Virus record (IMG/VR): IMGVR_UViG_3300042556_001053
Location: 1 to 64,000 of that record
Length of the DNA: 64,000 nt
Origin: a virus
Direction: 5' to 3' (one strand)
Part shown: positions 5,310 to 63,146 of the stretch, piece by piece
How the letters are laid out: every line of letters begins with the position of its first letter
How positions within the stretch are numbered: the stretch's first letter is position 1
Notes under the pieces: generated by a model
What the model was told of the DNA's origin: nothing
What the model saw: only the letters and a program-made list of their open reading frames with translations
Databases searched by the model: none
Translations under genes and position numbers: made by a program

Positions 5310-5836
5310 GACCAAAAACCAACTATACAATACTTAACGCCAGAAGTAACTGGGTCTGCTGAATGAATAAACTCTTCTGATGATGGAAATACAAATAGAG
5401 TGTTTGACTTTGCTTTAAATGACTTATTAAGATTGCTAAAGGTAATTGTTCCACCATCATAGTTATCGTTTAGGTACAGCACTGCAGATATTTTTCTAGG
5501 AAATTCTTCAGTAGAATCTATATGCTCTGCAAAAAATTGTCCTGGAACATACCTGACAACATGATATCCTTCTCCAGTAGTTATATTAATACTGTGTCTT
5601 ATTGCATACTCATTAACAATAAAATCAACTTCTTTTCTTAGCAGATCGTTTAATTCAACATCTATTCGTTTAACGTTTGCATCCCTTATATCTTTTGCTG
5701 AAAGCTTATTGTTTGTTTTGTATCTAGACTTCGCAACTCTTGCATCTGCCCATTCATGCTCTGAACAATGACCTAAAACATAGTCTAATTTTATGTTTGG
5801 TACATCATAGATAGAAATCATGTCTAAACTATTCAT
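5306..5836 (-). CDS. 2OG-Fe(II) oxygenase, prolyl 4-hydroxylase-like
   Basis: EHID..YLNDNYDGG..IHSADPVTSGVKY (HxD..H..K). Confidence 0.9.
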   Translation of the reverse strand: MNSLDMISIYDVPNIKLDYVLGHCSEHEWADARVAKSRYKTNNKLSAKDIRDANVKRIDVELNDLLRKEVDFIVNEYAIRHSINITTGEGYHVVRYVPGQFFAEHIDSTEEFPRKISAVLYLNDNYDGGTITFSNLNKSFKAKSNTLFVFPSSEEFIHSADPVTSGVKYCIVGFWS

Positions 5837-18679: not shown

Positions 18680-21600
18680 TCAAGTTGTTGTAAAGGTTAC
18701 TGAGCCAGAGGCTGAGGATCCAGTCTGGTTTGCCCCTGAGTAAACAGTTACCGTAACAGTATATTGTGTTGCACGGGTTCCTCCAGTAATGGTTCTGCTT
18801 CTAGCGGCAGTGCTGTTGGCAGTGACTCCATTAAGATTTGTGGAAGGAGAAGTTGTAATAGAGTATGAAGCCTGATTGGTAGCACTCCAACTTAAAGCTC
18901 CTCCAAAATTGCTTGGAACAACTGCAACATTAGAAATTGTTGCTATTACAGATCCAAAGAACGGTGGGAAGAACGGTGGGAAGAACGGTGGGAAGAACGG
19001 TGGGAAGAATGGGAAGAATGGAGGGAAGAAAGGAGGGAAGAAAGGTGGGAAGAAAGGAGGGAAGAACGGAGTTGCTCCAAAGAATGGAGGGAAGAAAGGA
19101 GGGAAGAAAGGTGGGAAGAAAGGAGGAAAGAATGGGCTTGCACTAAAGAACGGCGGGAAGAACGGCGGGAAGAACGGCGGGAAGAATGGACTAGCAGTAG
19201 TCACTCCAGTAATAAGCGTTGTTTCTCCAACATCAGTACTTGATGGCTGTGGAGCAAGAAGCATGTTTGAAGTAGCTCTTGGTGAGTACCCTCCAGGTAG
19301 GCTTGTTGGGGTAGTTGAATTAAAATAAACACGGTATCTACTGCTTTGTGTTGGTGTAGTTGGATAACTAGTTACAGCAGATCCATTATTTACAAATGCA
19401 AAAGCATTATCTTGAACAACATATCTGTTTATAACAAACATATCAGCATATTGTTGTCCTGGATAAAACTTTGCTTCATACTCCATTATATTTGCGGGAG
19501 TTCCATACTGATATCCTAACCATCTTACTATATATGAAGATGAATCTCCAAAATAATAAAGTGAGGTTTGTTGCATATCTCTTGGCATTACAGAAAATAC
19601 TAATCCAGATGTGCTGGTTACTGAGTCTGACGTATTAGCAGTTACTGCACTGGAGTTTCCTAAACTTATATAGCCATTGGTGGATACGCTTATTCTGTTA
19701 CCCATTGCAAAGGTATATTCTGCTGGAGCTGTATAAGTTACAGAGCCAGAACCTTGGGTGTCTGTAATAGCATTTGCAGTTGTTATGCTTGATCCAGAAG
19801 ACAGTGATGCTGATGTACCAGTCTGATTTAGTCCAGAATAAACTGTAATACTATTTACTGTAACTGTTCTAGATAATGAATCATTAGATATAACAGGAAT
19901 ACTTGGACTAGTTGCACTTGAGTTTCCAGTAACATTGAAGGTAGAAAGCCCTGATGCGGTTATATTAATTGAATAGCTTTGTGCTCCAGATTGTGTCCAT
20001 GAAACATTTGCACCTTTATTTGTATTAATTGCACGTATGCCAACTGATGCTGTTCCAGTTGATGTTACCGTAAATGTTCCATCTGTTAGCAATGATGATG
20101 GGTTTGTTGGAGATGAGCCACCAGAACCTGCTCCAGATACCGTAAATAAGCCTGCTGCTGATGTATTGGATCCGTTTGCCCATGATACAGATCCAGTATT
20201 TGATGGTGGTGTATTAGAAACAGATATGCTAGTAGAAGAACCTGGAGCAATAGAATTATTACTAATAGATATTCCACTAATTGATGGAGGGGCTGCAGGT
20301 GTAGTAAATTGAGTACCAGTAGATGAAACAGTGTCTCCAGTTCCTGATGTTATTATAAGTACTGGAGTGTAACTTGTTTGTTCAGAAAGAGAAACCGACT
20401 TGGATACTTCTGTTGTTCCGCTATGTGAGCCTACACCAGTTAATGACCACGAAGACTGATTTGTTTTTGTCCAAGATATTAATGCGCTATTATATGTAAT
20501 AGAGCTTGCTGTTGGTCCAGAGTTTATTGCTGGAATATCCATAGATATAGATGATGGAGATCCTGAACCTGTTGAGTTCTTTGCTCTAACATAAAAAGTA
20601 TTGCTTCCAGATAATCCACTTACGCTATATGTTAAAACATTACCAATGTCTGTATATCCTAGGTTGTTAATTTGATACTCATAAGATGTAACTGTTCCAG
20701 CGGGTTTTTCCCACGTAAATGTTTTTGATCCACCATTTCCAGGAGACTTTGCTAAATTTGGCGGTGCTGGTGGAATTGCTACTGATGTAGTAAATGATGC
20801 ACCAGTAGTAGTTGCTGTATCACCATTAGGTCCAGTGATAGTTAGAGTTGGTGTATAAGTTGTGCTTGGGCTTAATGCATTATTAACAGCATAGGTTGTT
20901 TGTGTAGTTCCAGTAAACGGATTTCCTGTAGCCCCTGGTATTGATAAAGAAAAAGAAGATTGATTTGTGGTTTGATTTGTCCAGTTAAAGGCTGCACTAA
21001 CCGATGTTACTGGATTTGCTGCTGGGAAAGAAGAAATAACTGGTGGGGTAAATTGTCCAGTGTTTACCGAAGACCCTGAACCAGAACCATTGTATGCTCT
21101 TACTTGAAACGTGTTTATACCATTTATAACATTTAAAGAAACTGAAGTGGTTAAACCAACATCAATAAATCCTAAATTGTTTATTTGATACTCATATCCT
21201 GTTGGAGTTGAACCACCTGACGGTGCACTCCAAGTAAATGTTTTAGCTAAACCATTTCCTGTACTCCTTTGAAGGTTTGTTGGAGGGCCTGGTACTGGGG
21301 CTGATGTGGTAAATGTTCTTGATGCTGATACTGTGTCTCCGCTTGAAGATGTAACTGTAAGTGTTGCTGTATAGGTTGTGCTTCCAACAAAAGCATTGTT
21401 TACTGCATAAAATGTTCCAGAATCATTTCCAGTAAAAGGTGTGCCAGTGGCACCTGGTATAGATAGAGAATAGCTTGATTGATAGGTTGATGTCCAATTA
21501 AATAAAGCTGACGTTGATGTTACTGGATCTGGTGCTGGGAAAGTAAGAGTTGGTATAGTAAATTGTCCAGTGCTTACAGACGTTCCTGGTCCTGCTGCAG

Positions 21601-23269
21601 ATCTTGCTCTTACTGAAAATGTTAAATTTTGCCCAGCTATGCTTGTAAAAGATACAGAACGTGTTAGTCCTGTGCTTACCCAGCCTGCACCACTTAGGTT
21701 GTATTCATAGGATGTAGGAGCTGTTCCAGATGATGGTGCGTCCCATGTAAATGTTTTATTTGGTCCATTACCCAAAGTTCTTTGAAGGTTTGTTGGAGGG
21801 CCTGGTACTGGAGCAAGAGTGGTAAATGCGGTTCCTGAAACAGTATGGGTATCTCCAGTTGATGATGTAACAGTAATTGTGGGTGTATATGTTGTACTTC
21901 CTTGCAAGTCAAACGGTGGAGTTGCAATAGGGGTAGACTCAGTGGTTGTTGCTGAATACGGAGATGTTGCTCCTGCTGGAGATAAAGAAATAGAATAGCT
22001 TGCTTGGTCATTAGATGCCCAATCTATTTCTGCTGCTGTTGAATTAAATGTAACAGCAAATGGTGGCGTTGTAACTCTTGGTACAATAAATGATGGAGTT
22101 GATACAGCTGAGCTTTCAGATGTTGGACCAACAGACCTTACTGAAAAAACATTTTGTGACCCATAGACTGTTGTTATTGAAACACTAGTTAATAGATTAT
22201 TACTGATCCAGCCAGAATCACCAAATGGGCTTGTATATCTATATTCATACTTTGTTAGTGTTCCTCCTCCAACAGGTGCTGTCCAACTGAAGGTTTTTGA
22301 TGTTCCGTTGCCCAAAGTTCTTTGAAGGTTTGTTGGAGGATTTGGTGGGGTTTGAAGTGGTCCAAATACAGCAAATTGTTTAATTCCATAATCCTCCCCT
22401 ATATTATAATCAGTTCCACTATTTTTTTGTGTATCAACAGCATAGTAATATGTACCTTCTGGAATGGTTGCTGGTGTAACTAAAGATGATGTAACATTGT
22501 AAACATTAGATGTAACAGATGGAGTATTTGTAGTTATTCCTGATGTAACCTCAGTTCCATATGTTGCTATATTTGATGTATTATATGTTCCACTTGTTGC
22601 TGTATACCATTTAACTGAGCTTCTTGTTGAGTCTGGCAGATATTCTGCGGTACCGTTCCAAGATGAAGAGTATTGCAATGTAGCTGGTAAAGATGTAACA
22701 ACTCCAATAATTCTCGGATCTACTCCTGATTGTTTTAATGGGTTATTTCTAATTAATGGAATTCTATATCCAAGACCAGTCTCTGTATTATCTGTATTAT
22801 CTATACCTTCTGCACCTGTTGATGTTATTGCTTTTACTGTAAATAATAGCCATTTACCATCCCATAAGTTTGAATCAAAAGTAATTGACACATATGGTCC
22901 ACCCATAGGTGTTTCAGATATAAGGCTTGTGTATGGGCCAGTGTCTAACGTTGCTGATGTTGAACCTTCAAGCTTGTATTTATATGAAGATATTGTTTCT
23001 CCATTTCCATCCCAAATTCCTCTTTGTGCATATTTTGTTGAACCAAAAATAATTGGCTCAATTACATAATTATTTCCTGCTGTATCTGAAGAAAAGTACG
23101 GTGCTTTTGTTGTAAATGGTCCAGATTTCGGCCAAAATAGTTTCCATAATGTTGATGTAGATTTTATCCATGCCCTTGTAACTGGAACCCACTCTGTTGG
23201 GCTTTTCTTAACCCATATTTTAGTAGCAGAAGCCCAGGTAGTTGGGTTTTTTTTAATCCACAATGGCAT
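18680..23269 (-). CDS. Tail fibre/receptor-binding protein with multiple FN3 domains and a Pro-Phe-Phe repeat tract
   Basis: Repeated PGPPTNLQR..KTFTW.AP..YEY..F.VRA units; last gene of the tail module; start MPLW at 23269. Confidence 0.85.
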   Translation of the reverse strand: MPLWIKKNPTTWASATKIWVKKSPTEWVPVTRAWIKSTSTLWKLFWPKSGPFTTKAPYFSSDTAGNNYVIEPIIFGSTKYAQRGIWDGNGETISSYKYKLEGSTSATLDTGPYTSLISETPMGGPYVSITFDSNLWDGKWLLFTVKAITSTGAEGIDNTDNTETGLGYRIPLIRNNPLKQSGVDPRIIGVVTSLPATLQYSSSWNGTAEYLPDSTRSSVKWYTATSGTYNTSNIATYGTEVTSGITTNTPSVTSNVYNVTSSLVTPATIPEGTYYYAVDTQKNSGTDYNIGEDYGIKQFAVFGPLQTPPNPPTNLQRTLGNGTSKTFSWTAPVGGGTLTKYEYRYTSPFGDSGWISNNLLTSVSITTVYGSQNVFSVRSVGPTSESSAVSTPSFIVPRVTTPPFAVTFNSTAAEIDWASNDQASYSISLSPAGATSPYSATTTESTPIATPPFDLQGSTTYTPTITVTSSTGDTHTVSGTAFTTLAPVPGPPTNLQRTLGNGPNKTFTWDAPSSGTAPTSYEYNLSGAGWVSTGLTRSVSFTSIAGQNLTFSVRARSAAGPGTSVSTGQFTIPTLTFPAPDPVTSTSALFNWTSTYQSSYSLSIPGATGTPFTGNDSGTFYAVNNAFVGSTTYTATLTVTSSSGDTVSASRTFTTSAPVPGPPTNLQRSTGNGLAKTFTWSAPSGGSTPTGYEYQINNLGFIDVGLTTSVSLNVINGINTFQVRAYNGSGSGSSVNTGQFTPPVISSFPAANPVTSVSAAFNWTNQTTNQSSFSLSIPGATGNPFTGTTQTTYAVNNALSPSTTYTPTLTITGPNGDTATTTGASFTTSVAIPPAPPNLAKSPGNGGSKTFTWEKPAGTVTSYEYQINNLGYTDIGNVLTYSVSGLSGSNTFYVRAKNSTGSGSPSSISMDIPAINSGPTASSITYNSALISWTKTNQSSWSLTGVGSHSGTTEVSKSVSLSEQTSYTPVLIITSGTGDTVSSTGTQFTTPAAPPSISGISISNNSIAPGSSTSISVSNTPPSNTGSVSWANGSNTSAAGLFTVSGAGSGGSSPTNPSSLLTDGTFTVTSTGTASVGIRAINTNKGANVSWTQSGAQSYSINITASGLSTFNVTGNSSATSPSIPVISNDSLSRTVTVNSITVYSGLNQTGTSASLSSGSSITTANAITDTQGSGSVTYTAPAEYTFAMGNRISVSTNGYISLGNSSAVTANTSDSVTSTSGLVFSVMPRDMQQTSLYYFGDSSSYIVRWLGYQYGTPANIMEYEAKFYPGQQYADMFVINRYVVQDNAFAFVNNGSAVTSYPTTPTQSSRYRVYFNSTTPTSLPGGYSPRATSNMLLAPQPSSTDVGETTLITGVTTASPFFPPFFPPFFPPFFSASPFFPPFFPPFFPPFFPPFFGATPFFPPFFPPFFPPFFPPFFPFFPPFFPPFFPPFFPPFFGSVIATISNVAVVPSNFGGALSWSATNQASYSITTSPSTNLNGVTANSTAARSRTITGGTRATQYTVTVTVYSGANQTGSSASGSVTFTTT
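18956..19189 (-). repeat. 12-bp coding repeat encoding (PPFF)n: 19 FF pairs in three blocks
   Basis: plus-strand units gaagaacggtgg, gaagaaaggagg, gaagaacggcgg. Confidence 0.95.
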
Positions 23270-23270
23270 A

Positions 23271-26200
23271 TTAATATTGTACCAGTAAGTCTCCAGCATA
23301 TCCAGTATCGTCGGTTGGAGCCTGAGTTCCATAAGACGTTGGCTTATAGTATACTGCCATTCCAAGCATAACCTCTCCAGTTACTGGATCTTCAATTAAC
23401 ATTCTTGATCTTGGGTATCTTCCAAGTGGATTGACACCACGATATGATCCACTTCCGTCTGGAACTACTGTTGCGTTGGTAGCTATAGTCATATCTAAAT
23501 CTCTTTGAACCTGTATACCAGTTATTACAACACCGTAAGTTGGATCTAGAGTAATCTTTGATGGACCTGAATATGCTGAAACACCACCTACTGGAAATGC
23601 ACCACCACGTCCAACTCCAGAACCTACAACAACCTGATTACTTCCTTGTATAGTAATCTTGGATTCGGTTCCAACACTAATAAAAGTATTTGTTGCTGCA
23701 TTTATTTTTATTCCAGTGCTGTCAAACTGTTGCCATACATTTGTTGCTGCATTTATTTTTATTCCAGAAGAAGTAAACTTTTGCCAAATATTTGCTGTTG
23801 ATGAGATTTCAATTTTTTGTCCATCTGGCAAACTTGCAGAATCACCATCAATATTAATAAATACGTTTTCTGTTGCAACTAGCTTAATTTTTTTACTAGT
23901 AAATGCTGCCCATGCACCATACTTTGTGCTTGGAGAGTATGCTGCAGCTCCAGTTTCTGGATCAACTACAGTAGTTTGTGCAGTATAAAATAACATTGAT
24001 GGTGTGTTTGTTGCAATAGCTGGATTTAGCTTATCTCCAGTTGCAGCTGAGCCTTTATCCAAAAGAAGTCCTAGGTTTGGAGCTACTGATAACTGTATAC
24101 CAGTTGTGCTTGCAGTAATAAATGGATCGCTTCTTTGAAGAGTGAAGTAGTCCCAATCACCAGTATATAGACCTACTCCCTTTACTGTAGTAACTCCATC
24201 TGCTAATACAGAATTGTTCCAGTAATCCTTAAAGCTTGATCCAGCTGCAATGTATGGTCCGTTTACAGGTCCTGATGATGCTATTTGTTTACCAGTTGAC
24301 CATGGCTCAGTCGGGTTTGGACTAGTTAAATATATGTTATTATTTCTTGGAACTAAAAATGCTGCTGGACCTAGAGTACCACCAGGGGTTCCAGCTGATT
24401 GCAATGACATATAACCATGTTCACCATCCATGGTCATCTTGCCTAATGCTCCTACGCTTGATACAGTTCCAGTAATCTTAGCATTTGACGCATACAGGTT
24501 TCCAGCTAGCGTTACTCTAAATGCATGAGTTGTTCCTATAGCACCAAAACTATCTGAACCAGCCCAAAACACGTTTTCTGTTCCAACAGGCGTACCGTTA
24601 ATGTTGTCTGATGGCGTACTACCAGTGGATATGTATGGTCCATTTATTCCAGCTGTGTACCCCGCAATATTTTGTGAACTTACTGATATATTTCCATCGG
24701 ATGAGTTTAATGATATATTTGCAGCACCAGACCTTGATATAGATGAAGCATTTACATTCCAGCCACCAATAACAGCGCTTCTTGTAGTAAATAAACCATC
24801 TTCTGATCTTATTGTTGTTATATCTCTTGTTGTTGATGAGTTAAAAGTTAGGCCATCTTTGTTTAATATAAAACCAGTTCCTGTAATCAATATAACTGAT
24901 CCAACTGAATCAGTAACTAAAGCATTAGTTGTATTAGCAACAGTAAACGTGTTTGATGTCCTTGCTGTTATTTTAAACTTGCCGTTGTACCCTTCTGGCA
25001 AAAGTCCAGAAATAAGGATATCATCTCCAACTACATACCCATGGTTAATTGAACCAGTTGTATAAGTTGCTGTTGTTGCTGTATAAGTAACGCTGGAGAT
25101 TGCAAATACTGTTGGTGGCGTAATAAATGATTGAAGAGATCCTCCACCAGCTATTGAAACGTTTCCACTAAAATTTCCTTTTCTTGCAGAGATGTTTCCA
25201 TCAATTACAAAATCAGAACCGCTCCAGTCAATATAGTTTGAATTTTCTCCACCAACCCTTATTGAAGCTGATTGATCTGAATCAATGCGCCAGTAGTTAT
25301 ATGAATTAAACCTTAATCCACGTAGTGATGGACCATCATCTTGAATTCCATATCCAAACCTAAATGCTGTGCTATCAGCATCAGATGCATTTGCTTTTGC
25401 TTGAAAATATCCAGAGACATTTACTTTTTCACTTGCAATATACGGAGTTCCACCTATCTCAACATTATTACCCGCAAAGTAATTTGAAGAAAGATTATTG
25501 TACTGATCATATGTTGCAACCGCAATCTCATATTCTGCCCCAAGGCTTAGTCCAGTTAACCTATAAGATGTTGCGTCTCCAATTGAGTCTGCAGTTGAAT
25601 ATTTTGAAACTGGATCTGTAACTGGTCTATACCTTATTCTGTATCCACGTATATCTCCAGCTGTTATTGGGCTCCATGAAAGGTCAATATATCCATTAAA
25701 TCCAACTACTCCTGTAGAATCTATTCCACCTGATGTCTCAAGTGATGTAACATCTGGTGGCCCCTCATTGTCTGCACCTACAGAACTTGTTGGTGTTACT
25801 TTTTTAGCAGCAGAAAAAGCTGTGTATATTCCAGCATCTGAAGAAAATCTTGCCTTTACCCATCTTTGGTTTGTTCCATCAGTAATTATATTTGCTGGAT
25901 TTATTGATCCAAAATAAGTTCTGATATATGTAACACCTGTTGGCTCTGTTAAATCTGTAGACTCATATTCAACCACATCAATAGCATCATAAACATCTTC
26001 AACTGGAGTTGTGTATGAAACACTATAGCCACCTTGAATTGGTTTAACATCAATAACTGGTATTGGCAAACTTAAAACATATTCTGGAACTGTTGGAGCA
26101 CAAATTGTATTGCTTATGTTATTGAGTGGATCTGCAGTCAAAACACATACTGCAGAAAAACTTGTTCTAAACACATTAAACATTGATGTAATTATAGATT

Positions 26201-26705
26201 TTGTTACTGTGACTGTTTGTCTAGTTTGTGTCGTGTTTGGTATAAAGATATTAGACTGCGATCTTTTTGTTACTCCACCTGAAGTTAGTTGCACAATAAA
26301 CTGTGACACAGAATCATTAACATCATTAGCATAATCCCAGTCAAAGCTTATAACTAAATCATTTCCAACCCAAGCTACAGAAACATTTGTTGGGTCAGTT
26401 GGAACAACAATTACTGGTCCAGAACCACCAGGATATGTCTTGGGGGGTTTATTTCCTCCACGTGGAATAGTTATGCCACCGAAATCTGGAGGCAATGGCG
26501 CTGGTGGAGTTCTTCCAGCAGGGTTGTTTAGATTTCTACCGCCACCTATTAATGCTTTTCCATCAAGACCAACAATATCAATTTCAGCACCTTGTCGTGC
26601 TTTTGTCTGTCCTATTTTACCTGGTTTTAATCTTGGGTCATCAACGCCAATTGGTACCGTTTGGTTTTTACCAACGGATTTACCACTTGTATATTTTGAC
26701 TTCAC
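23271..26705 (-). CDS. Minor tail/tail-tip protein with FN3 domain
   Basis: FN3 LSWSP..GYRIRY..YRLTGL..YEIAVATYD; GTG start; position in tail module. Confidence 0.8.
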   Translation of the reverse strand: MKSKYTSGKSVGKNQTVPIGVDDPRLKPGKIGQTKARQGAEIDIVGLDGKALIGGGRNLNNPAGRTPPAPLPPDFGGITIPRGGNKPPKTYPGGSGPVIVVPTDPTNVSVAWVGNDLVISFDWDYANDVNDSVSQFIVQLTSGGVTKRSQSNIFIPNTTQTRQTVTVTKSIITSMFNVFRTSFSAVCVLTADPLNNISNTICAPTVPEYVLSLPIPVIDVKPIQGGYSVSYTTPVEDVYDAIDVVEYESTDLTEPTGVTYIRTYFGSINPANIITDGTNQRWVKARFSSDAGIYTAFSAAKKVTPTSSVGADNEGPPDVTSLETSGGIDSTGVVGFNGYIDLSWSPITAGDIRGYRIRYRPVTDPVSKYSTADSIGDATSYRLTGLSLGAEYEIAVATYDQYNNLSSNYFAGNNVEIGGTPYIASEKVNVSGYFQAKANASDADSTAFRFGYGIQDDGPSLRGLRFNSYNYWRIDSDQSASIRVGGENSNYIDWSGSDFVIDGNISARKGNFSGNVSIAGGGSLQSFITPPTVFAISSVTYTATTATYTTGSINHGYVVGDDILISGLLPEGYNGKFKITARTSNTFTVANTTNALVTDSVGSVILITGTGFILNKDGLTFNSSTTRDITTIRSEDGLFTTRSAVIGGWNVNASSISRSGAANISLNSSDGNISVSSQNIAGYTAGINGPYISTGSTPSDNINGTPVGTENVFWAGSDSFGAIGTTHAFRVTLAGNLYASNAKITGTVSSVGALGKMTMDGEHGYMSLQSAGTPGGTLGPAAFLVPRNNNIYLTSPNPTEPWSTGKQIASSGPVNGPYIAAGSSFKDYWNNSVLADGVTTVKGVGLYTGDWDYFTLQRSDPFITASTTGIQLSVAPNLGLLLDKGSAATGDKLNPAIATNTPSMLFYTAQTTVVDPETGAAAYSPSTKYGAWAAFTSKKIKLVATENVFINIDGDSASLPDGQKIEISSTANIWQKFTSSGIKINAATNVWQQFDSTGIKINAATNTFISVGTESKITIQGSNQVVVGSGVGRGGAFPVGGVSAYSGPSKITLDPTYGVVITGIQVQRDLDMTIATNATVVPDGSGSYRGVNPLGRYPRSRMLIEDPVTGEVMLGMAVYYKPTSYGTQAPTDDTGYAGDLLVQY

Positions 26706-26718
26706 GTTGGCCTCTTAA

Positions 26719-27246
26719 TTACTTTGGCCCTATTGCCATCCAGTTTACAAAAAAAGTTCCAGTTATTGCGATTCCATCACTGTTAGTACTATTTGGATTA
26801 GTTACTCTGTATGTAAAGCCCTCTTGTGTTACAGCTACAACAGTTACTACAATATGAGAATTCCACTTTACTTTAGTAGATTGTGTATTTTGTATTGTTG
26901 CAGTCACTATTGGAGGTGCATCAAATGATGATGCTCCAGATACGTCGTCTGCAAAAACAACATCGCCATAGTATACCTGTGGCACATTGTTACTAGCTGA
27001 ATCAAAGGTAATTCCTGGTAACTCTGGATTAAACTTGTTCTTACCAAAAACAATCTTTTGTGATCCTGGGTCATACTCATGAGATAAGTCAGACTCACCT
27101 TGCCAGTTTGTCTCGCCTGTACCCTGAATTCCAAAATTATTAGTAATTGCGGTAATGCTATCGCTATGCTGATTAACAACATTAATAACTTGCTGCCATG
27201 CAGCAACGTCTATTACGTTTGGATCTGATATTTTAATGTATGACAT
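26719..27246 (-). CDS. Minor tail protein with H-type-lectin-like/gp53-like C-terminus
   Basis: FDAPPIVTAT..VTQEGFTY..VNWMAIG. Confidence 0.7.
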   Translation of the reverse strand: MSYIKISDPNVIDVAAWQQVINVVNQHSDSITAITNNFGIQGTGETNWQGESDLSHEYDPGSQKIVFGKNKFNPELPGITFDSASNNVPQVYYGDVVFADDVSGASSFDAPPIVTATIQNTQSTKVKWNSHIVVTVVAVTQEGFTYRVTNPNSTNSDGIAITGTFFVNWMAIGPK

Positions 27247-27265
27247 TATGATCTCCTAGATTTCA

Positions 27266-27274
27266 ATTATACCA
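27266..27274 (-). promoter_or_regulatory. Extended -10 promoter TGGTATAAT
   Basis: Gap upstream of AGGAG SD. Confidence 0.7.
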
Positions 27275-27285
27275 CAGCCATCCTG

Positions 27286-30200
27286 CTAATCTAATCTATT
27301 CATCTTGATAGATGTTGAAAGCCCAGAATCAAATGAGTGGGATACTGACTGAACCATATATCGTTGGCTGCTAATACCATTTAGTGAGTAGGTTAGTCCC
27401 ACTATGTCTCCTACTTGGATTAGTGGGTTGCCGAAGATATTTAAAGTTACCGTTTTTGAAAATCCATCCAGACCCATCTCAACAATCTTGAGCATCTTAT
27501 ATGCTGCCTCTTTTGATTGAATCCACTCAGAGTCTAACTGAAGAACTTCTGACATGTTGGATTGGTCAACAACCTTTTCAATAATCTCTGGATCTGATGG
27601 AGCCACAACTTCATGTGTCCATAAGTTAAAGTTAATAGTAAACTGATTAAGTTCGTCAGATTCTTTACGTAAGAAAACCATATGAGGAGAATTGTTTGCT
27701 ACTGCTATCTTTGCTCTAAACCCAGTATTGATAGGAGTTGAGTATGCCAAAGAGTATTCATCAATAATCTTCTTTTGATAATTTTTTTGATCTTCTGGTT
27801 CATTTCCTGGGAAGTAGTACCACATATATTCAATTGGCAAAACATCAACAGACACTGCAGCTGGAGTTGTATATTGAACATCATACACATTAATGCCTGA
27901 AATTTCTGGTGTTGTCTGCATAATATAACTTGGAGACAAGTTGGCTAGGCTTTGGTTTTGTATTAAACCATTTAAAAATTCTCTGTCTTGGTAAAAATAA
28001 CTTACACTTCTTTCCTTTAATGGTTTTTTAGTTGCATGTATTTCTCTTAAAGATGATGCATGGTTTGAATCAGGGGATGGGAACTGTAGTGGTGGCTCTA
28101 AACCATCTATTGCATTAGGAGCTGAAGATGATACAAATCCAAACTTTGTGTCAAGAACCATGTCATTTGCTACAGATGGTTTTCTTCTCATTCCAGTTAA
28201 TGGATTAATGCTTGTTGGCTTATATCCTGTTGCACCTGTATCAGGGTCTGATGGGTCTCCAGGAACTTGCCAGCTACTAATCTCAACATTATTTAAAAAG
28301 ACAGAAAGAATATTCTTGCTTATTTCTTCTGTTCCGTCTTCACCGTCTGATCCGTCAGAAATATATCTAACAACCTTTAGGTTAAATGCGTTATCAGTTA
28401 CATAGTCGTACTGATATTTATTATCAACCTTGGTTTTATTAATTATTTTAGCAAAATTATTTGTTATGCTCTGACATTCTCCAGTTACATCAGACCAAGC
28501 AACTATATATCCATCAGTACGAATTGTAAGGGCATACCTATATCTTGGTGGATCATATAAGGTAACGGTTCCTGGTACTAAAACATTGTACTTAATCAGT
28601 TCAACAAAGTATGCCCAGTCAGTTGATTCTTCATCTTTCATATTAAAAAATAAACCTGCTGTTGTTACAGCTTGATCTGGCATGTCAAACTTAACAGAAT
28701 ATGTTTGATATCCTATATCAAGCGCATCTGTTGGATATATTAAGGTCTTATTAGTTCCAAATGTTTCAACTCTAATTTTATCAATGCTTGGCAAGCTATC
28801 AGTTATTTCACCATTACTTGTTTTACTGTTAATTATAGAAGCATCATTAGATGCTGACACATCAGTATAATAATAATTTATAGATTTTTCGGAAAGGCCT
28901 TTGCTTGCTAACGAATCTATTCTAGCATGTTCTGCTGGGGCAGTACCAAACATTCCACGTTTTACGTTTGTTATTTTTCCAGTTGGTGTTATTAAAATGT
29001 CTGATGTAGAGGCAGTAAATGCAGAACCTGACTTAGTTACTGGGTCAAGAGAGTGAGATGTAGTAAGTATTAAAAAGCTAGTTGCATCTGCATCAAGCAC
29101 TGTTCCAGATAAATTAAACTGAGTTGGAACCATACCGCTAATGTTAACCCTATCACCAACAGCAAAATCATTTTCTGCATAGTATGTGTTTATTACTCCA
29201 TCTCCTTCTGCATCAGTAACTATTGCAGACTTTTGATTTAGACCAACACCGTACTGCTTAACAAACCTATTGATTTCTGAAGATAGCTCAAGATTATTTT
29301 TTACTGAAACCTTTTCTGAAAGATTGGAGCTCATGTTTGTAAGTTCGTACTCTTTATAAACAAAAGAAACAATCTCATTTTCAATAGCTGCGTAGCCCTC
29401 ATTATTCATATTGAATGTGTGAAAAATATCCAATAAGTCGTTATTGTTGATCTGAAACACGTTTGTATCTTCTGACATGTCCGCATTAAGATAGTTAAAT
29501 CCAACAGAATCCAAGGTCTGCTGCTGCCACACCACATCATTTGAAGTTGTATAAATAAATGATGGAGAGTTTTTAATTTCTAGGTTTGTAACATTTTGTA
29601 GCGATGGCGATTGTTTAATTTTAGGTGTCTGATATCTTAGGGATATTTTTCCTGGCTTAGCGTTATTGGATATTGAAAATCCACCTTCTAAAATATTTGA
29701 GTCTGAGATACTGAGTGATGTTGTTGTTGAAGACAGGATATCCTGCAAACTTAAAAACTTCATAATTCCATACTCATCAATATATGCGCCTATTTGATAT
29801 GCAACAAAGATTTGGCTTAAAGCATCTAAAACTGTTGTATCCTTTGAGTTACAGTAGTAATAGGATAGGTCTAATGGTGCTGACTTATTATTACATATTC
29901 TATATAAAGAGTCATAGTCATAGTCTGTAAAACCAGCAAGATCTAATATGTTTGTTATTACTTCAAATACAGTCTTTAGACTTGCTACATAGTCTGGTAC
30001 TGGTGTTGACTGCAAATACCGTGAAATATCAAAGCACTGAACGCTTATGTCGCTAATATCATTTTCTTCCCAAGTATCTGAATAGAATATACCCCCTGGA
30101 ATGTATGTGCCTGATGTTGTTACGCTGCCAGGTGATGCATAATCAATAAGGTTAAAGTTAACGTAAAACTTAATATTTTTTCTTAAAATATTTGCTAATA

Positions 30201-31635
30201 TACTAGATGCTTGATTGCTTTGACTAGAAAAAATGGGAACCAGTGTTGATCCACTCATTGCTGGTATACCTGACAGGCTAATTCTTGCATCATTTGTATT
30301 AATTGAAGAAATTGGAAGAGCAGTTCCTCCAGCATCTAAAGACTTATCTATGCTTATATTTTGTACAAAATCTGAAAGGTCTATTTCAAGTCTTGGAGAA
30401 ACTTCTATTAAGTGCATTCTTTTTAGATCTAAAGATATATTAGAGTTGGCATTTGATACTCCAGTTATTCCAGAAAGTGCAGAATTTGCTTGGCTTGATG
30501 TTTGAGTTACCGTAATCTTTTTTAAATTTGTTGAAATAGACAATGCCCCAGCTGAATCAAACTTTGGCATAACTGACCATTTACTTGTACTCCAAGCAGA
30601 TCCTGTCCAATATAAAACTACAACTCCGCTACTACCAACAACTACTGACTGAGAACTTGTTGACTCAGTTCCATTGACAACAGCAGTTATAGAGATACTC
30701 ACCGTTGGAACAGTCATTAATGTATTAAACTTTAAAACAATTTTATTTGTAGGAATTATTTTTTCATATACAGCAGTGATGCTTCTTGAGTTTGAGTCCG
30801 AAACAAAGTATTTATATGGTGCGATGTCAGACGGTAGCGCTGTCTTTATGTTTGGTATTGTTGATGCTGCAAGAAAAAACTTTGGGTTTTGTAGTATACA
30901 ACTTACTGGAGAATACTTGTTTCCAAAAAATCCTCCAGTTGAAGACTCAGTGCTTAAAAGTTTAGAAGCTATTCTTCTATAGTTAGATGGAAAAGAATAC
31001 TTTGAGTCTCCAGACGAAACATATGATTCTCCTGGTCTGAAGTATGAAAATGCACTTTCGGTTGGAAATAAAGAATGATTGTAAAAATCAAATGCTGTTG
31101 TCTCATATACTTCTGGCAACGTATAGCGAACTGTTGCAGTGAGATCATCTGCATCAGCACCGCTAATTGTGTTGGCTGTTATTTTATAAACAAAAGAAGA
31201 TATTGTATCTAGGCTTCCAGAAGATCCTATGTATGTAACAGCCTTTGTCCAGCCAAGTGAATCAACATCTATATTTTCTGTACCGTACTGAGTATCTGAT
31301 CCTTTTGCAGATGCTGTAACCATAACTGGAGTTGCTCTGTTTGTTTTTACATAAGTTACTATTTTATATGCTTTTCCAGACAATCCAGAGAATGTATACG
31401 AAACTGATCCAGTACCGCCTGACATTGTAAATTTTTTGGTTGTAAAGTTTTCTTTTGATTCTGCTGTTGTGGCATTTGTATCAGTTCCAGATGTCGGAGA
31501 TATCTTTGTGCCTGTTCCAGCAGTGGTAATATATGGCTGATTAAATAAGTTATGATTCCATTCAGCAGAAACTACTGGTACTAATGTTATTGAGTTTGAT
31601 CCTGTAAATACTGATGAGAGTTCGCTACTGAGCAT
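27286..31635 (-). CDS. Baseplate hub/tail-tip (Tal-like) protein
   Basis: Follows Dit; YIDEYGIMKF and C-terminal GNPLIQVGDIV..Y.V.SVSH hub motifs. Confidence 0.8.
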   Translation of the reverse strand: MLSSELSSVFTGSNSITLVPVVSAEWNHNLFNQPYITTAGTGTKISPTSGTDTNATTAESKENFTTKKFTMSGGTGSVSYTFSGLSGKAYKIVTYVKTNRATPVMVTASAKGSDTQYGTENIDVDSLGWTKAVTYIGSSGSLDTISSFVYKITANTISGADADDLTATVRYTLPEVYETTAFDFYNHSLFPTESAFSYFRPGESYVSSGDSKYSFPSNYRRIASKLLSTESSTGGFFGNKYSPVSCILQNPKFFLAASTIPNIKTALPSDIAPYKYFVSDSNSRSITAVYEKIIPTNKIVLKFNTLMTVPTVSISITAVVNGTESTSSQSVVVGSSGVVVLYWTGSAWSTSKWSVMPKFDSAGALSISTNLKKITVTQTSSQANSALSGITGVSNANSNISLDLKRMHLIEVSPRLEIDLSDFVQNISIDKSLDAGGTALPISSINTNDARISLSGIPAMSGSTLVPIFSSQSNQASSILANILRKNIKFYVNFNLIDYASPGSVTTSGTYIPGGIFYSDTWEENDISDISVQCFDISRYLQSTPVPDYVASLKTVFEVITNILDLAGFTDYDYDSLYRICNNKSAPLDLSYYYCNSKDTTVLDALSQIFVAYQIGAYIDEYGIMKFLSLQDILSSTTTSLSISDSNILEGGFSISNNAKPGKISLRYQTPKIKQSPSLQNVTNLEIKNSPSFIYTTSNDVVWQQQTLDSVGFNYLNADMSEDTNVFQINNNDLLDIFHTFNMNNEGYAAIENEIVSFVYKEYELTNMSSNLSEKVSVKNNLELSSEINRFVKQYGVGLNQKSAIVTDAEGDGVINTYYAENDFAVGDRVNISGMVPTQFNLSGTVLDADATSFLILTTSHSLDPVTKSGSAFTASTSDILITPTGKITNVKRGMFGTAPAEHARIDSLASKGLSEKSINYYYTDVSASNDASIINSKTSNGEITDSLPSIDKIRVETFGTNKTLIYPTDALDIGYQTYSVKFDMPDQAVTTAGLFFNMKDEESTDWAYFVELIKYNVLVPGTVTLYDPPRYRYALTIRTDGYIVAWSDVTGECQSITNNFAKIINKTKVDNKYQYDYVTDNAFNLKVVRYISDGSDGEDGTEEISKNILSVFLNNVEISSWQVPGDPSDPDTGATGYKPTSINPLTGMRRKPSVANDMVLDTKFGFVSSSAPNAIDGLEPPLQFPSPDSNHASSLREIHATKKPLKERSVSYFYQDREFLNGLIQNQSLANLSPSYIMQTTPEISGINVYDVQYTTPAAVSVDVLPIEYMWYYFPGNEPEDQKNYQKKIIDEYSLAYSTPINTGFRAKIAVANNSPHMVFLRKESDELNQFTINFNLWTHEVVAPSDPEIIEKVVDQSNMSEVLQLDSEWIQSKEAAYKMLKIVEMGLDGFSKTVTLNIFGNPLIQVGDIVGLTYSLNGISSQRYMVQSVSHSFDSGLSTSIKMNRLD

Positions 31636-32141
31636 TATATCTCCGTAAACTCAATACTCATATCAACATAGTCTGAAAGTTTTGTTCTGTTAATTATTGT
31701 TTTAGAAAAATCAGTCATAAAAACAGTGTATCTTTTTGCTCCAGTTTCAGTTGAGCCACTATTAAGCGCTGTTTGTGCAGTAGTAAATGTTCCAGATGGT
31801 AGCGATCCTGCAGAAGAATCTGTAGCAAGTTCTGACGCTACAACCTTTATGTATATTGGTACTCCTGCATTTGATTGATAAAAAGATTCAAGCCAAGCAG
31901 CTGCATTAAAACCGTCAGCAGATTCAGAAGTTTTTGATGGTACATATTTCCATGATACTGATATTTTTCTTTTCTTGGCAACAACATATTTTCTCATTGT
32001 TCCATTAGCCATGCGTGACTGAGACTCAATTAGTTCTGTTGAAATCTGAATAGGCTCTCTATTATGGTCTGTAATGCTTTGCCAGCTATTATCTGCACCA
32101 GTTAAAGAAACCTGTATACCTGCACCAATTGTATATGCCAT
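31635..32141 (-). CDS. Distal tail protein (Dit-like)
   Basis: RMANGTMRKYVVAKKRKISVSW; immediately downstream of tape measure. Confidence 0.7.
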   Translation of the reverse strand: MAYTIGAGIQVSLTGADNSWQSITDHNREPIQISTELIESQSRMANGTMRKYVVAKKRKISVSWKYVPSKTSESADGFNAAAWLESFYQSNAGVPIYIKVVASELATDSSAGSLPSGTFTTAQTALNSGSTETGAKRYTVFMTDFSKTIINRTKLSDYVDMSIEFTEI

Positions 32142-35100
32142 TAGATGCTAACCTTGTTAGACTTATTATTCTTATTAATTTCAACCTTTAATCGTCTCAT
32201 AACTTCGTTTGCAACACCCTCTGGGCTTGCATTGTTACTTGTAATAGGCATATTTATATTATACACGGTACCGCCAGAATTTGTGCTAATGTCTGCAGTT
32301 CCATTATTTACCGCATTCATTGCAGCAACTCCATAGTCCTTAACAGATGATGCCTTTACAACAAACTCTCCATTTGAAACACGAATTGATCCTCCACCTG
32401 CATAACCAAGTGTTGCTTTAATTGAATCAGAGCGTCCTGTTCCAGGACCCTTGATAAGGCCCCCATTGGCCTTCTTAGGCAGTTTTGCCTTCTCAACGCT
32501 AGTTAGCTTAGACCCATCTTTAATCTCAGTTACTCTTGCTCTTAGAGCATCAATTTCGGCATCCTTTTTTCTTAACTCTGTCTCTTTATTAAATTCCATT
32601 TGTACATTTCTTGACTGTTGACCAAGCATTGCTGCCTCTATGTAGTTTCCAGAAATTTTAGCTTGTACTGCCTGACTAGCCAGATCTTGAAGCTTCATCT
32701 GTAAATCAATCTGTCTTTGAACTTCTTCGTTTGCTGCTTTTTGTGCATCACGCTTAGCTTCTAGTTTATTAATCTCTTTTTCTAACAACTTAATATACTG
32801 TTCTTCCGCAGTTAGCTTATCTTTACCCTTGCCTGTTCCATCATCTGGTGACTGATAATCTTTTACATTTGGTGATGTAGAACCTTTTGTAAGCGCTGCA
32901 GCTGCTTTTCTTGCTGCATCTCTTGCAGCATTAAAGCTCTTTATAACCTTTTCAGCATTATAAACTCTTATAGCATCATCTGGACCTGCAACTGTTGTAT
33001 TTTGAAGTATAAGCATTGCTTCAATTGCTCCAGAAAGTGCACCAGTTAATCCTAGAGCTTGGGCCTCCATGATAGCTAACTTATTGCCTGTTCCAGTTAT
33101 TCCTTGTGCAGCTTTTTGTAAGTTAGCTGGAAGCGACTTCATCATTTCATTTAGCAAAATAGTTTGTTCTGGCTTTGGCATTGTTGCAATAGATGATCCA
33201 AGCCTTCCCATTCCTTGAGCGAATTGGTCTGCAGATATAGTTCCATTTTTTAGTTGTCCAGTTAAACCATTAATAAAGCCAGTTGCTGCATCTGCTGCAA
33301 GTTTTACATTTTCTTTAGCTCCCTCAGAAAATTGATTAACAACTTTGTTAACTTGACCTACTCTTTGTGCATAAACCATTGTTTGAGTAATTCCTTGATC
33401 AACCTGATCTAATATAGCGTTAAAGTTTTTGTCAAAGTTTAAAATTCCCATATCAGTTGAAAGATCAACATTAGCAAAGTTAAACTTAAAATCAGTCTTT
33501 CCAGATTCTTCTTGCAAAGCTTTTATAATTAAATCAATTTGTTCTTTGGCAAATCCAGAACCACGAAGCTGAATAGCAATAGAGTCAAAAACTAACTTGG
33601 CTTGCTGATTACTTCCTTTTCTTAAGGACTCAATGTCTTTCTTAAAGTCTTTTTGAAAGTTTTCATTTTCTTGTAATGAATCAATCTGAGATTGTTCTTG
33701 TGAATTTGCACCAGTGTTATCTGTAGCATTATCTCTAGATAAAAAGTCAAGCTTGGTTGGAACCACCCCGAAGAAATCTCCAAGTGTCTTAAGCTTCTTT
33801 TCAGATACTAATGCAGCATCTCCAAGACCTTCAACAGCAAGACGCTCACGCTCTTTTGCTGCATTAAGAAGTTTAACTATGCCGACTGTTGCTGCTAAGC
33901 CTAAAGCTACTAACTTAAATGGTCCTGGTAGAAGAGCTAATACCATCTTTAGTGCTTGGAATCCAAATACCGCTGGCATAATCTTTTGTGCAAGCTCTCC
34001 CATTTTGCCAGGTAGGAATGCTGCTGCTATCATTGCAGAGTTTCCTGCCATACCAACTGCTGCTCCACGTCCTGCAAACTTTGATCCAACCTTACCTGCT
34101 GCACCCTTAGCCTTTGACATTCTAGATTGTTTTTCAGGAGTTGTCATTGGAAGGAATACTGTTCCAGCTGGTGCCACTGGTCCAATACCTGCAGGTCCTT
34201 GTTTTCTTGATGCTTTTCCAGACCTTGTTCCAGAAACAACAGCGTCTCCAAGGGCTTTTCCTGCTTTGTTAGCATCTTTCTTTTTAGACTTTACACCATC
34301 TGCTAAACTTTTTCCTGCATTTGCTCCTGCGTCGCTCATCTCTTTGGATGGAGATGAAATACGAAGAGCTGATCTTGCACCACTAATAAGTGCAGATGTA
34401 GCTGCTTCAACTAAGCTTTTTCCTTTAAGCGCAAAGTCTTTTGCTACCAAAGCTGATATTTGAACTGCGCCTCGTCCACCGTAAGCTGCTTGTCTTTCTC
34501 CTGCTTTTTGATTTAAGAAGCTAACTTTGTTTGAGCTTCTTGGTCTTCCAGTAGCAGTATCTCTAGCAACTCCTCCGCCTGTTCCTGCAGGTGCAACAAC
34601 AAACTCACCAGTTCCTGACTTTATCATAGCTGCTAAATATTTACGCTTTGCTTCTAATATTTGCTTTTCTGTTGTTAGTCCAGACTGCTTAAGTTTTGCT
34701 AGTTCAGTGTCTACTTTTGAAAGTCTTTCATCAGCAATCATTCCTGCTTGCTCTACAGTAATTCTCTTACCGTCAATTTTAATTCTAGCATCTGCCAGCA
34801 ATCCTTCAGTAATTGCTTGCTTAGCGTTTGCTCTCATGTAATCAATTCTTGATTTAGTTGCACCGTTTGAGTCTTGTAGTAAAGCTCTTGCAGTTGCACC
34901 TTCTCTAGATAGCTGCTCAAGCTCTACGGTGTGCTTTTGTGTTGAAACCTTGTTTTCTCTCAGAGCTACAGCTGCTTGATCTCCTGCTTCGGCCAAAGCA
35001 TCTAGTGTAAAAGGCTCTCCCTTAACACCAATTGCATTAAACATTGTATTTCTTGAACCTGTGCCAAGAGTTGTTGTACCACCGAAAGATCTTCCACCAG

Positions 35101-59963: not shown

Positions 59964-59972
59964 TCTGTCTCC

Positions 59973-60632: not shown

Positions 60633-60633
60633 A

Positions 60634-63145: not shown

Positions 63146-63146
63146 A

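Follow-up and report, generated by a model that had tools for sequence, protein, structure and literature searches.

A two-residue Pro/Phe polymer in phage tail fibers is genomically coupled to P4H-type oxygenases and is a strong candidate for their substrate

We found that a 114-kb uncultured phage carries, within a tail-fiber protein, a 78-residue tract that is nearly pure Pro and Phe and that tracts of this kind are genomically coupled to 2OG-Fe(II) oxygenases of the prolyl 4-hydroxylase (P4H) type. Judged from sequence, the tract is a strong candidate substrate of these oxygenases. We consider a prolyl-hydroxylated rigid spacer to be its best reading, with a probability of about 0.5. The Pro/Phe (PF) tract is one case of a widespread, undescribed phage module, an FPPx polymer; literature searches on Pro-Phe-Phe or PPFF repeats in phages and on P4H in bacteriophage yielded no account of such tracts. 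Below, "the window" is the whole stretch of DNA that was analyzed, 64,000 nucleotides of this genome.

The tract lies at positions 18956..19189 on the minus strand and corresponds to residues 1393 to 1470 of a 1561-aa ORF (18680..23365, minus strand). Translation gave 38 Phe, 34 Pro, and 6 other residues, arranged in three blocks with the separators SAS and GAT as PFF(PPFF)3-SAS-PFF(PPFF)4-GAT-PFF(PPFF)4-PFF(PPFF)4. The 19 FF pairs fall in blocks of 4, 5, and 10, and Tandem Repeats Finder detected a 12-nt period across 18957 to 19186. Retranslation reproduced exactly the coordinates, FF count, and block sizes given in the initial annotation, and the three synonymous 12-mers that it listed are each present in the tract. 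Among the 72 P/F codons, every difference is at the third position and all are synonymous, which supports the earlier proposal that the peptide, not the DNA repeat, is maintained. Pro is encoded by CCA (11), CCG (11), and CCT (12), and the TTC:TTT ratio for Phe is 34:4 within the tract versus 4:47 elsewhere in the fiber ORF. When aligned, orthologous tracts differ solely by in-frame length changes. The tract is not a collagen (G-X-Y)n repeat; it has a single Gly, which is located in a separator.

The antisense frame, (GKNG)n, is also open throughout the tract, and because it uses the same third positions, third-position variation alone cannot assign the strand. We chose the P/F strand because the P/F frame continues into FN3-type domains on both sides, while the antisense ORF is just 150 aa; ORF continuity and gene orientation led us to reject the antisense ORF as a true gene. 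A contingency (phase-variable) locus was likewise rejected, as 12- or 9-nt units keep the frame, the repeat is synonymously diversified, and the use of TTC over TTT avoids T-runs.

Among the large tail-module genes, the ORF that carries the tract comes last. The genes are arranged as tape measure (32141-37483), minor tail protein (27286-31635), FN3 protein (23271-26705), the 1561-aa fiber ORF, and helicase; the rest of the tail-tip module (23271..37483) is, like the fiber ORF, on the minus strand and was assigned with PHROGs and Pfam. The listed TTG start of the fiber ORF overlaps the ORF upstream, and the true start may be internal. Orthologs occupy the equivalent position in five other loci (L220-L224). 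Directly before the tract is a conserved domain of ~210 aa (19190..19828, minus strand) with the motifs GNRISVSTNGYISLG and MEYEAKFYPGQQYAD, which is 52 to 73% identical among orthologous fibers whose tracts range from ~24 to 78 aa. Directly after it is a terminal FN3-type domain (residues 1471 to 1561; 18683..18955, minus strand), with a Pfam fn3 match at residues 1491 to 1552 (whole-protein E = 8.2e-07) and an AlphaFold beta-sandwich at a pLDDT of 65 to 83. The AlphaFold model of the pre-tract domain was poor. For the last 382 fiber residues, modeled with five orthologs, the mean pLDDT was 42, and the tract was unstructured (pLDDT 21 to 48); the model carries no information on the shape that the tract takes. 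The fiber ORF fell into no PHROGs family and had no match by megablast or tblastn among 50,697 deposited phages, a search limited by the low-complexity filter and by fiber variability.

IMG/VR has at least 119 contigs with (PPFF)3. Cellular genomes almost lack it, with 22 matches in 185,579 genomes (596 Gb); 16 of these are short junk ORFs, and the other 6, on MAG contigs, are small PF proteins, with an oxygenase within the retrieved stretch at 4 of these loci. The cellular matches gave no clue to the host. By BLAST, at least 15 pre-tract regions are mutually unrelated. Across 124 PF ORFs, TTC makes up 86% of Phe codons inside tracts and 39% outside, and its fraction is greater in the tract than outside for 83 of 85 ORFs, a preference that avoids T-runs. 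Most genomes hold two or three PF-tract genes. In some relatives a self-cleaving BIL/Hint domain follows the tract; this domain is absent from the fiber gene here. The PF contigs belong to one broad siphovirus group (capsid identity, 40 to 89%). The capsid of the lineage studied here is common to >599 IMG/VR contigs, and the lineage is abundant.

The window part of the putative tailoring array (57272..63821, minus strand) consists of eight PF13640 (P4H-type) 2OG-Fe(II) oxygenases and one SDR (57851-58519, minus strand), and a solitary P4H-type oxygenase lies at 5306..5836 on the minus strand (PF13640, E = 2.4e-14). The nine oxygenases counted in the initial annotation are thus correct for the window; across all 114 kb of the genome, there are 13 oxygenase-like ORFs. 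The remainder of the array begins at 63824..64000 (minus strand) and extends beyond the window. In genome coordinates, it comprises DUF6065 (63824-64552), an oxygenase (64552-65229), a DUF6065-like gene (65239-66015), and a further oxygenase (66015-66728), which brings the array to 10 oxygenases and 2 DUF6065-type genes. At its head is a second P/F copy of 132 residues on a small 358-aa FN3-FN3 protein (66884-67960), followed in genome coordinates by a collagen-like gene (PF01391, 68001-68720). This 132-residue P/F protein lies just past the window edge and was missed by the initial annotation. A terminator-like hairpin and a near-consensus promoter are found between the second PF gene and the array, and the two may be separate transcription units.

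The HxD...H triad (H158, D160, H212) is invariant in 11 of 11 aligned oxygenase paralogs. The best solved matches of the array oxygenase profile were the Bacillus anthracis P4H (8.6e-13), PBCV-1 P4H (3.5e-11), P3H1, and PHD2, and by this comparison the solved enzymes nearest to those of the array are prolyl 4-hydroxylases. Against deposited phages, the first oxygenase of the array gave only partial matches of 24 to 35% identity, all in cyanophages. Pfam recognized DUF6065 in 18 of 32 family members; the DUF6065-type protein was modeled by AlphaFold (pLDDT 89) with a dUTPase fold (Z 8.9) and has an invariant C78. Pfam scanning of the array ORFs inside the window found no halogenase. The genome also has a GT60-type gene (PF11397, the hydroxyproline GlcNAc-transferase family). 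PF11397 is absent from 20 other PF contigs, and we dropped a Pro-to-Hyp-to-GlcNAc pathway as a conserved part of the system for this reason.

We examined the coupling of tracts to oxygenases in three sets of loci. The forward set was 119 IMG/VR loci chosen solely by the (PPFF)3 DNA pattern. An HMM of the genome's oxygenases matched 84 of the 119 (317 ORFs), and a P4H-type 2OG oxygenase was present somewhere in 73 of 83 assessable loci, mostly directly downstream of the tract gene. Downstream sequence of 1.5 kb or more was available for 87 PF ORFs, of which 63 had an oxygenase within 1.5 kb downstream, and PF13640 was found in 15 of 15 PF-selected contigs of at least 53 kb. The reverse set was 80 loci chosen solely by similarity to the first oxygenase of the array (49 to 88% identity). 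We found a PF tract in 71 of these. Upstream sequence reached 1.2 kb or more at 61 loci, and at 52 of them a PF ORF ended within 2.5 kb upstream. Four PF-less loci that we checked have degenerate PPHF or PPSF/PPGF tracts. Collagen-like ORFs were present in only 12 of the 80 loci.

The third set consisted of 14 contigs chosen solely by capsid (77 to 90% identity). PF tracts were found in exactly 2 of the 14, and these are the two with six-oxygenase arrays. Each of the two has an additional, distant PF tract; in one of them (G030) it is in a fiber gene ~2 kb from the helicase, as in the genome here, and the fiber and the small protein share the terminal cap PYFPYFT[LI]PG. Six contigs that cover the fiber region and at least 25 kb of the array side have neither PF tract nor array. 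The two-site layout recurs in a complete relative of 112 kb (G025). The orthologous fiber domain was not found in the oxygenase-free relatives because the fibers are too variable, and the helicase and capsid were used as flanking markers in its place. A search for PPxYY tracts gave only 5 loci, all without an oxygenase, and these were dropped as a negative control because they are too few. The counts of co-occurrence are not counts of independent events, because most of the contigs are partial, they are related to one another, and the PF gene adjoins the array. The fiber gene is 34 kb from the array, and its tract is therefore linked to the enzymes by co-occurrence and not by proximity. The co-occurrence that the initial annotation had proposed as a check is seen in the forward set, in the reverse set, and inside a single phage lineage. 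Its expectation that such arrays would come with PF tracts holds for the orthologous oxygenase clade and fails at the level of the broad family, where the Synechococcus phage Syn9 has an array without them.

We propose the following model. Selection keeps the translated Pro/Phe polymer, which this phage group has attached to several unrelated fiber-region proteins and which would act here as a variable-length spacer between the distal tail-fiber body and the terminal FN3 head. Inside the infected cell, the array enzymes would hydroxylate tract prolines, perhaps at more than one position; this would explain why there are so many diverged paralogs and an SDR. Once hydroxylated, this very hydrophobic polymer, otherwise prone to aggregate, would form a soluble and stiff rod on the virion, polyproline-II-like in shape and comparable to the shafts, rich in hydroxyproline, of wall proteins in plants and algae. 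Against this model stand the lack of predicted structure for the tract, the 34 kb between the fiber gene and the array, the possibly separate transcription units, the absence of the GT60-type gene from 20 other PF contigs, a number of diverged paralogs (ten) that exceeds the need of simple prolyl 4-hydroxylation, and the related dioxygenase arrays that have no PF tract. In a bolder and rather doubtful version, about 10 position-specific hydroxylases, dUTPase-fold helpers, and the SDR might together rewrite the two-letter polymer into a multiply hydroxylated, possibly decorated fiber rod or adhesive. This multienzyme tailoring of the virion would be a counterpart of hydroxyproline-rich wall proteins and mussel adhesives, and the tract would give the tandem dioxygenase arrays of phages, those of cyanophages included, their first protein substrate. 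Other parts of the initial annotation fared less well. "RiPP-like" is a poor fit for a tract that is internal to a 1561-aa structural protein and has neither leader nor release site, the parallel with antamanide and cyclolinopeptide is merely a common four-letter word, and the suggested roles in adhesion, membrane insertion, or camouflage found no support.

The tract might instead stay unmodified and serve as a self-associating aromatic element that zips fiber chains together or docks the FN3-FN3-(P/F)132 protein through PF-PF contacts, with the oxygenases acting elsewhere. Few tripeptides aggregate as readily as Pro-Phe-Phe, a genome usually has two or three PF-tract genes, and the cap common to the G030 fiber and small protein hints at a shared partner. 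We nevertheless regard self-association as unlikely, because it leaves the joint gain and loss of PF tracts and P4H-type enzymes unexplained, an exposed pure P/F stretch of 78 to 250 residues would not easily remain soluble inside the cell, and AlphaFold gives it no structural support. It is also quite improbable that the tract is a low-complexity linker of variable length made by slippage, tied to the oxygenases through shared descent and cassette hitchhiking, while the array makes a secondary metabolite or modifies host targets. The two-residue composition is held with strongly synonymous-only variation and a tract-specific codon bias, the pairing persists across unrelated N-terminal domains and differing gene orientations, and the presence of the array is tracked by the distant fiber tract too, not merely by the adjacent gene. 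Collagen-like genes are much less regular partners (12 of 80 loci). Such a linker would nonetheless fit the varied tract length in orthologs, the orthologous fibers that have no tract, the TP, TTEEP, or APPxYY linkers at similar places, the Syn9 array, and the membership of the contigs in one broad siphovirus group.

We think it very unlikely that the enzymes mainly target the Phe residues of the tract, through beta- or ring-hydroxylation or cross-linking, to give a Tyr/DOPA-like adhesive or a cross-linked fiber. The homologous fiber of an oxygenase-free close relative does have (APPxYY)11, with Tyr in place of Phe, none of the five Tyr-tract loci has an oxygenase, and the many diverged paralogs suggest more than one chemistry. 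However, five loci are a small sample, every one of the nearest solved enzymes is a prolyl or lysyl hydroxylase, and we know of no aromatic-ring hydroxylation by this oxygenase fold.

Phage genomes, above all those of cyanophages, encode many 2OG-Fe(II) oxygenases. Here, such enzymes are tied, whichever partner is used to select the loci and also inside a single lineage, to an easily recognizable, synthesizable candidate substrate, (PPFF)n. If the prolyl-hydroxylated spacer is correct, then phage receptor-binding fibers would undergo enzymatic posttranslational tailoring, a new axis of variation in host range and stability, and the product would be a natural poly(Pro-Phe-Phe) or poly(Hyp-Phe-Phe) material. 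Pro-Phe-Phe and Hyp-Phe-Phe tripeptides are already under study as self-assembling biomaterials.

A parallel case is the chlorovirus PBCV-1, which infects eukaryotes and has a single enzyme and charged repeats, PAPK for example. It likewise encodes a P4H-type 2OG oxygenase (PDB 5c5t), which is among the best solved matches of the array profile (E = 3.5e-11), together with its own Pro-rich repeat proteins, the presumed substrates. The phage here also co-encodes a P4H-family 2OG-Fe(II) oxygenase with an intact triad and a Pro-rich tandem repeat (34 Pro in 78 residues, 12-nt repeat). Unlike PBCV-1, it has 10 array paralogs (13 genome-wide), along with an SDR and two partners of the dUTPase fold, and the candidate substrate is a two-letter Pro/Phe polymer in virion fiber proteins.

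In Syn9, gp41-gp54 likewise include many diverged 2OG dioxygenases and a dUTPase-fold protein with a conserved Cys (PMC2938197). Iyer, Abhiman, de Souza, and Aravind (2010) proposed secondary-metabolite synthesis for Syn9-type arrays and named no protein substrate (PMC2938197). The array here has the same combination of tandem diverged 2OG dioxygenases and a dUTPase-fold, conserved-Cys protein, and Syn9 gp43 matched the genome's DUF6065 HMM at 4e-10, while the Syn9 enzymes are only remotely similar to those of the array (E about 1e-6). The Syn9 array directly follows tail-fiber genes. It includes tryptophan halogenases and a JmjC member, and we found no PF tract in the Syn9 genome even with 2 mismatches allowed.

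Extensins and proline-rich proteins of plants and algae, and mussel foot protein 1, have repeats of Pro and aromatic residues, need P4H-type hydroxylation, and form polyproline-II rods. The tract resembles extensins and mussel foot protein 1 in its repetitive Pro-plus-aromatic motifs and in its place in extracellular fibrous or adhesive proteins, a likeness that does not imply homology. These proteins are built of Ser/Hyp/Tyr/Lys-rich motifs and pass through the ER on secretion, whereas the tract has no polar residues and is made in the bacterial cytoplasm. The Pro/Thr linkers of glycoside hydrolases and phage fibers are likewise variable-length, low-complexity, Pro-rich spacers that join beta-sandwich domains, and relatives of the phage here have TP or TTEEP linkers at comparable places. 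Unlike these linkers, the tract consists strictly of Pro and Phe, shows a codon bias of its own, and is accompanied by a dedicated set of enzymes.

The virus record is complete, at 114,443 bp with 37.5% G+C. On the minus strand, the window encodes a portal, a protease, a capsid, a 1780-aa tape measure, a 1449-aa minor tail protein, and a 1144-aa FN3 protein. A 1561-aa ORF (window 18680-23365, minus strand; ORF list and translation) stands after the 1144-aa protein and is followed by helicase, primase, SSB, and DnaE-type polymerase genes. No large gene of the tail-tip module comes after it, and by this position we identify its product as a receptor-binding or fibre protein. Its TTG start, as listed, falls within the upstream ORF (95-nt overlap), and thus the true start may lie further in. 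At its N terminus (window 23100-23365, minus strand) is a repeated W-x-K-K...P-T-x-W motif, a module that probably anchors the fibre to the tail tip. By capsid, the closest cultured relatives are Streptomyces siphoviruses of 120 to 133 kb (43 to 45% identity), a kinship that fits an actinobacterial host but is not proof of one.

We found that residues 1393 to 1470 of this ORF (window 18956-19189, minus strand) read PFF(PPFF)3-SAS-PFF(PPFF)4-GAT-PFF(PPFF)4-PFF(PPFF)4 in translation. In this PF tract, 38 residues are Phe, 34 are Pro, and 6 are neither; its 19 FF pairs form blocks of 4, 5, and 10. The initial annotation had placed it exactly, and the three synonymous 12-mers that it quoted are all found there. 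Tandem Repeats Finder detected a 12-nt period across 18957-19186. An FN3 domain follows (residues 1491-1552), matched by Pfam fn3 and modeled by AlphaFold as a beta-sandwich with pLDDT of 65 to 83; AlphaFold was uninformative on the tract itself.

Differences among the 72 P/F codons are confined to third positions. An antisense (GKNG)n frame is also open over the tract and shares these third positions, so third-position variation alone cannot choose the strand. ORF continuity settles it: the P/F frame continues into folded domains on either side, and the antisense ORF is 150 aa. We regard the antisense (GKNG)n ORFs across the genome's two PF tracts (window 18876-19328, plus strand, and genome 66804-67499, plus strand) as repeat by-products. 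A second sign of selection is reversed Phe codon use, with TTC:TTT at 34:4 within the tract versus 4:47 in the remainder of the gene. In 124 PF-tract ORFs of other phages, TTC made up 86% of Phe codons inside tracts versus 39% outside, and its share was higher inside in 83 of 85 ORFs. This preference keeps the tract free of long T-runs, on which polymerases and ribosomes slip, as expected if accurate reading of the P/F frame is important.

Just past the window end, the genome encodes a second P/F protein (genome 66884-67960, minus strand), in which two FN3-type domains precede 132 residues of pure P/F. Behind its gene are 13 genes: ten PF13640 oxygenases, two DUF6065-type genes, and an SDR. 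Three more oxygenase-like ORFs lie elsewhere in the genome. By consensus match only, we found a terminator-like hairpin with a T-tail just beyond the stop codon of the PF gene, whose product is 358 aa (L120:2843-2860, minus strand), and a near-consensus promoter, TTTACA-17-TATAAT, before the first oxygenase (L120:2749-2777, minus strand). Since both lie between them, the structural PF gene and the array may be separate transcription units. The HxD...H triad is invariant across 11 aligned oxygenase paralogues, whose pairwise identity is 15 to 44%. Among solved structures, those nearest to their profile are peptidyl-prolyl hydroxylases, with matches to the Bacillus anthracis prolyl 4-hydroxylase (P4H) (8.6e-13), the chlorovirus PBCV-1 P4H (3.5e-11), and prolyl 3-hydroxylase 1 (1.4e-10), and weaker matches to PHD2 and lysyl hydroxylase LH3. 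The DUF6065 partner (window 63824-64000 onward; L120:1239-2015, minus strand) has a fold predicted at pLDDT 89. The model is a dUTPase-like barrel (Z 8.9), its top 22 matches are all of the dUTPase/dCTP deaminase family, and DUF6065-type proteins have one invariant cysteine. A separate block of modification-type genes (genome 83-101 kb, L196) encodes a TauD-type dioxygenase, GT2, a PF11397 "GlcNAc" transferase, a carbamoyltransferase, GT25, and a Gb3-synthase-like transferase. The PF11397 gene belongs to the Skp1 hydroxyproline GlcNAc-transferase family (E = 1.3e-19); PF11397 was absent from 20 other PF contigs.

The initial annotation had proposed the tract as a possible substrate of the oxygenases, and co-occurrence as a test. 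We found that tracts and oxygenases are associated in the forward direction, in reverse, and within a lineage. The forward set was 119 loci selected by P/F pattern alone. The focal-genome oxygenase HMM matched in 84 of these (317 ORFs) and the DUF6065 HMM in 61. For 87 PF ORFs the sequence continues 1.5 kb or more downstream; 63 of them have an oxygenase within 1.5 kb on that side, 54 on the same strand. Among assessable loci, 73 of 83 have an oxygenase somewhere. One 65-kb contig whose fetched stretch lacked an oxygenase has six elsewhere. PF13640 occurred in all 15 PF-selected contigs of at least 53 kb, usually in 6 to 11 copies.

The reverse set was 80 loci selected by similarity to the array's first oxygenase alone (49 to 88% identity). 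PF tracts were present in 71. Upstream sequence of 1.2 kb or more was available for 61, and in 52 of these a PF ORF ended within 2.5 kb upstream. Inspection of four of the rest revealed degenerate PPHF or PPSF/PPGF tracts. Collagen-like proteins are the textbook P4H substrate; collagen-like ORFs occurred in just 12 of the 80.

The lineage set was 14 contigs of 40 to 91 kb selected by capsid alone (77 to 90% identity). Thirteen span both capsid and helicase and so include the fibre region. PF13640 was found in three of the 14, two of them with arrays of six, and PF tracts occurred in exactly these two, each having a tract that adjoins the array and another far from it. Six of the 13 (G032, G034, G036, G038, G039, and G040) extend 25 kb or more on the array side and lack oxygenases and PF tracts alike. 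In G030 the fibre gene adjoining the helicase carries the distant tract as its C-terminal tail, as in our window, and a complete, terminally redundant 112-kb relative, G025, has the same two-site layout. For contigs of at least 40 kb, pooled, an oxygenase was present in 17 of 17 PF-positive versus 1 of 12 PF-negative contigs (Fisher p = 3.5e-07, which overstates the association because these are related, incomplete contigs in which one PF gene physically adjoins the array). Most contigs compared are fragments. More telling is the fibre tract, which also follows the array's presence although it lies far from it; the focal tract's tie to the array is co-occurrence, not adjacency.

PF tracts are modular. 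DNA encoding (PPFF)3 was found in at least 119 IMG/VR contigs by pattern scan. The same scan gave 22 matches among 185,579 cellular genomes: 16 junk ORFs and 6 small PF proteins in MAG contigs, with an oxygenase in the fetched stretch of 4 of these 6 loci. At least 15 regions mutually unrelated by BLAST precede tracts, in FN3-FN3 proteins of 250 to 450 aa, small proteins of 120 to 180 aa, and large fibre-type proteins. In general form the motif is FPPx, with F most often at x and Y, H, S, G, T, or R as alternatives. What follows the tract is an FN3 domain (as in the focal fibre), a short cap, or, in many relatives, a self-cleaving-type domain, about 160 aa long, with C[IV]xxDT at its start and often HN at its end (alignment A3; L034:6893-7390, L067:3043-3531, L087:5990-6478, L044:517-990, and others). 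Its profile matches several inteins and 2lwy, a bacterial intein-like domain of solved structure (6.5e-09), and such a domain would excise itself, making the tract the C terminus. The focal genome lacks it. In G030 the fibre (L314:1985-5440, minus strand) and the small FN3-FN3 PF protein (L322:955-1938, minus strand) share a terminal cap, PYFPYFT[LI]PG, nearly identical to the PFFPYFTLPG that ends the focal genome's small PF protein; this hints at one shared partner at the tail's end. In G025, a 303-aa protein adjoining the oxygenase array (L323:504-1412, minus strand) has about 250 residues of P/F/Y polymer and a Cys-rich cap, without an FN3 domain. The small P/F protein, used as a query, returned 887 relatives named no better than "hypothetical" or "Fibronectin type III," and we found no account of such tracts in the literature searched.

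We favor, at a probability of about 0.5, a model in which the tract serves as a spacer and the array hydroxylates its prolines. Hydroxylation would turn an otherwise insoluble polymer into a stiff, extended rod that holds the FN3 head away from the fibre body. A polyproline-II helix rises 3.1 Å per residue, which would give 78 residues a length of about 24 nm. Orthologous fibres have tracts of about 24 to 78 residues, or in some cases none, and this fits a tunable spacer. The number and divergence of the paralogues, with the SDR, suggest several modified positions or several chemistries.

An unmodified tract serving as an aromatic zipper or dock is unlikely, and we consider a plain linker with a hitch-hiking array somewhat less probable again. 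Chemistry directed at Phe is the least likely of these readings, though Phe may be a further target in view of the oxygenase-free close relative G038, whose fibre (L311:4107-6074, minus strand) carries (APPxYY)11, with Tyr at the place of Phe. Just five Tyr-tract loci of this type were found in IMG/VR, and none of the five has an oxygenase. The G038 fibre and the focal ORF share the W/K-rich anchor motif at their N termini, but G038 has (APPxYY)11 and a Cys-rich C-terminal knot in place of the PF tract and FN3 domain. A gene adjoining it (L311:2380-3447) resembles, by eye, the focal PF11397 (GT60-type) glycosyltransferase. The tract does not qualify as a RiPP, which the initial annotation had likened it to, nor as a collagen or a contingency locus.

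An array of ten dioxygenases was described in the Synechococcus phage Syn9 in 2010 (PMC2938197). Like the focal array, it combines diverged dioxygenases with a dUTPase-fold protein that has a conserved cysteine; Syn9 gp43 matches the DUF6065 HMM (4e-10). The Syn9 array, too, lies directly after tail-fibre genes. The Syn9 genome has no PF tract, even allowing two mismatches. Thus, arrays without PF tracts exist within the broad array type but almost never within the orthologous oxygenase clade. The kind of system has precedents: PBCV-1 encodes a P4H as well as Pro-rich repeats of its own, and phage Syn9 has tandem dioxygenases. What is new is the candidate substrate, a two-letter Pro/Phe polymer on virion fibre proteins, together with its two-way coupling to one specific oxygenase clade and its modular spread over unrelated fibre-region proteins.
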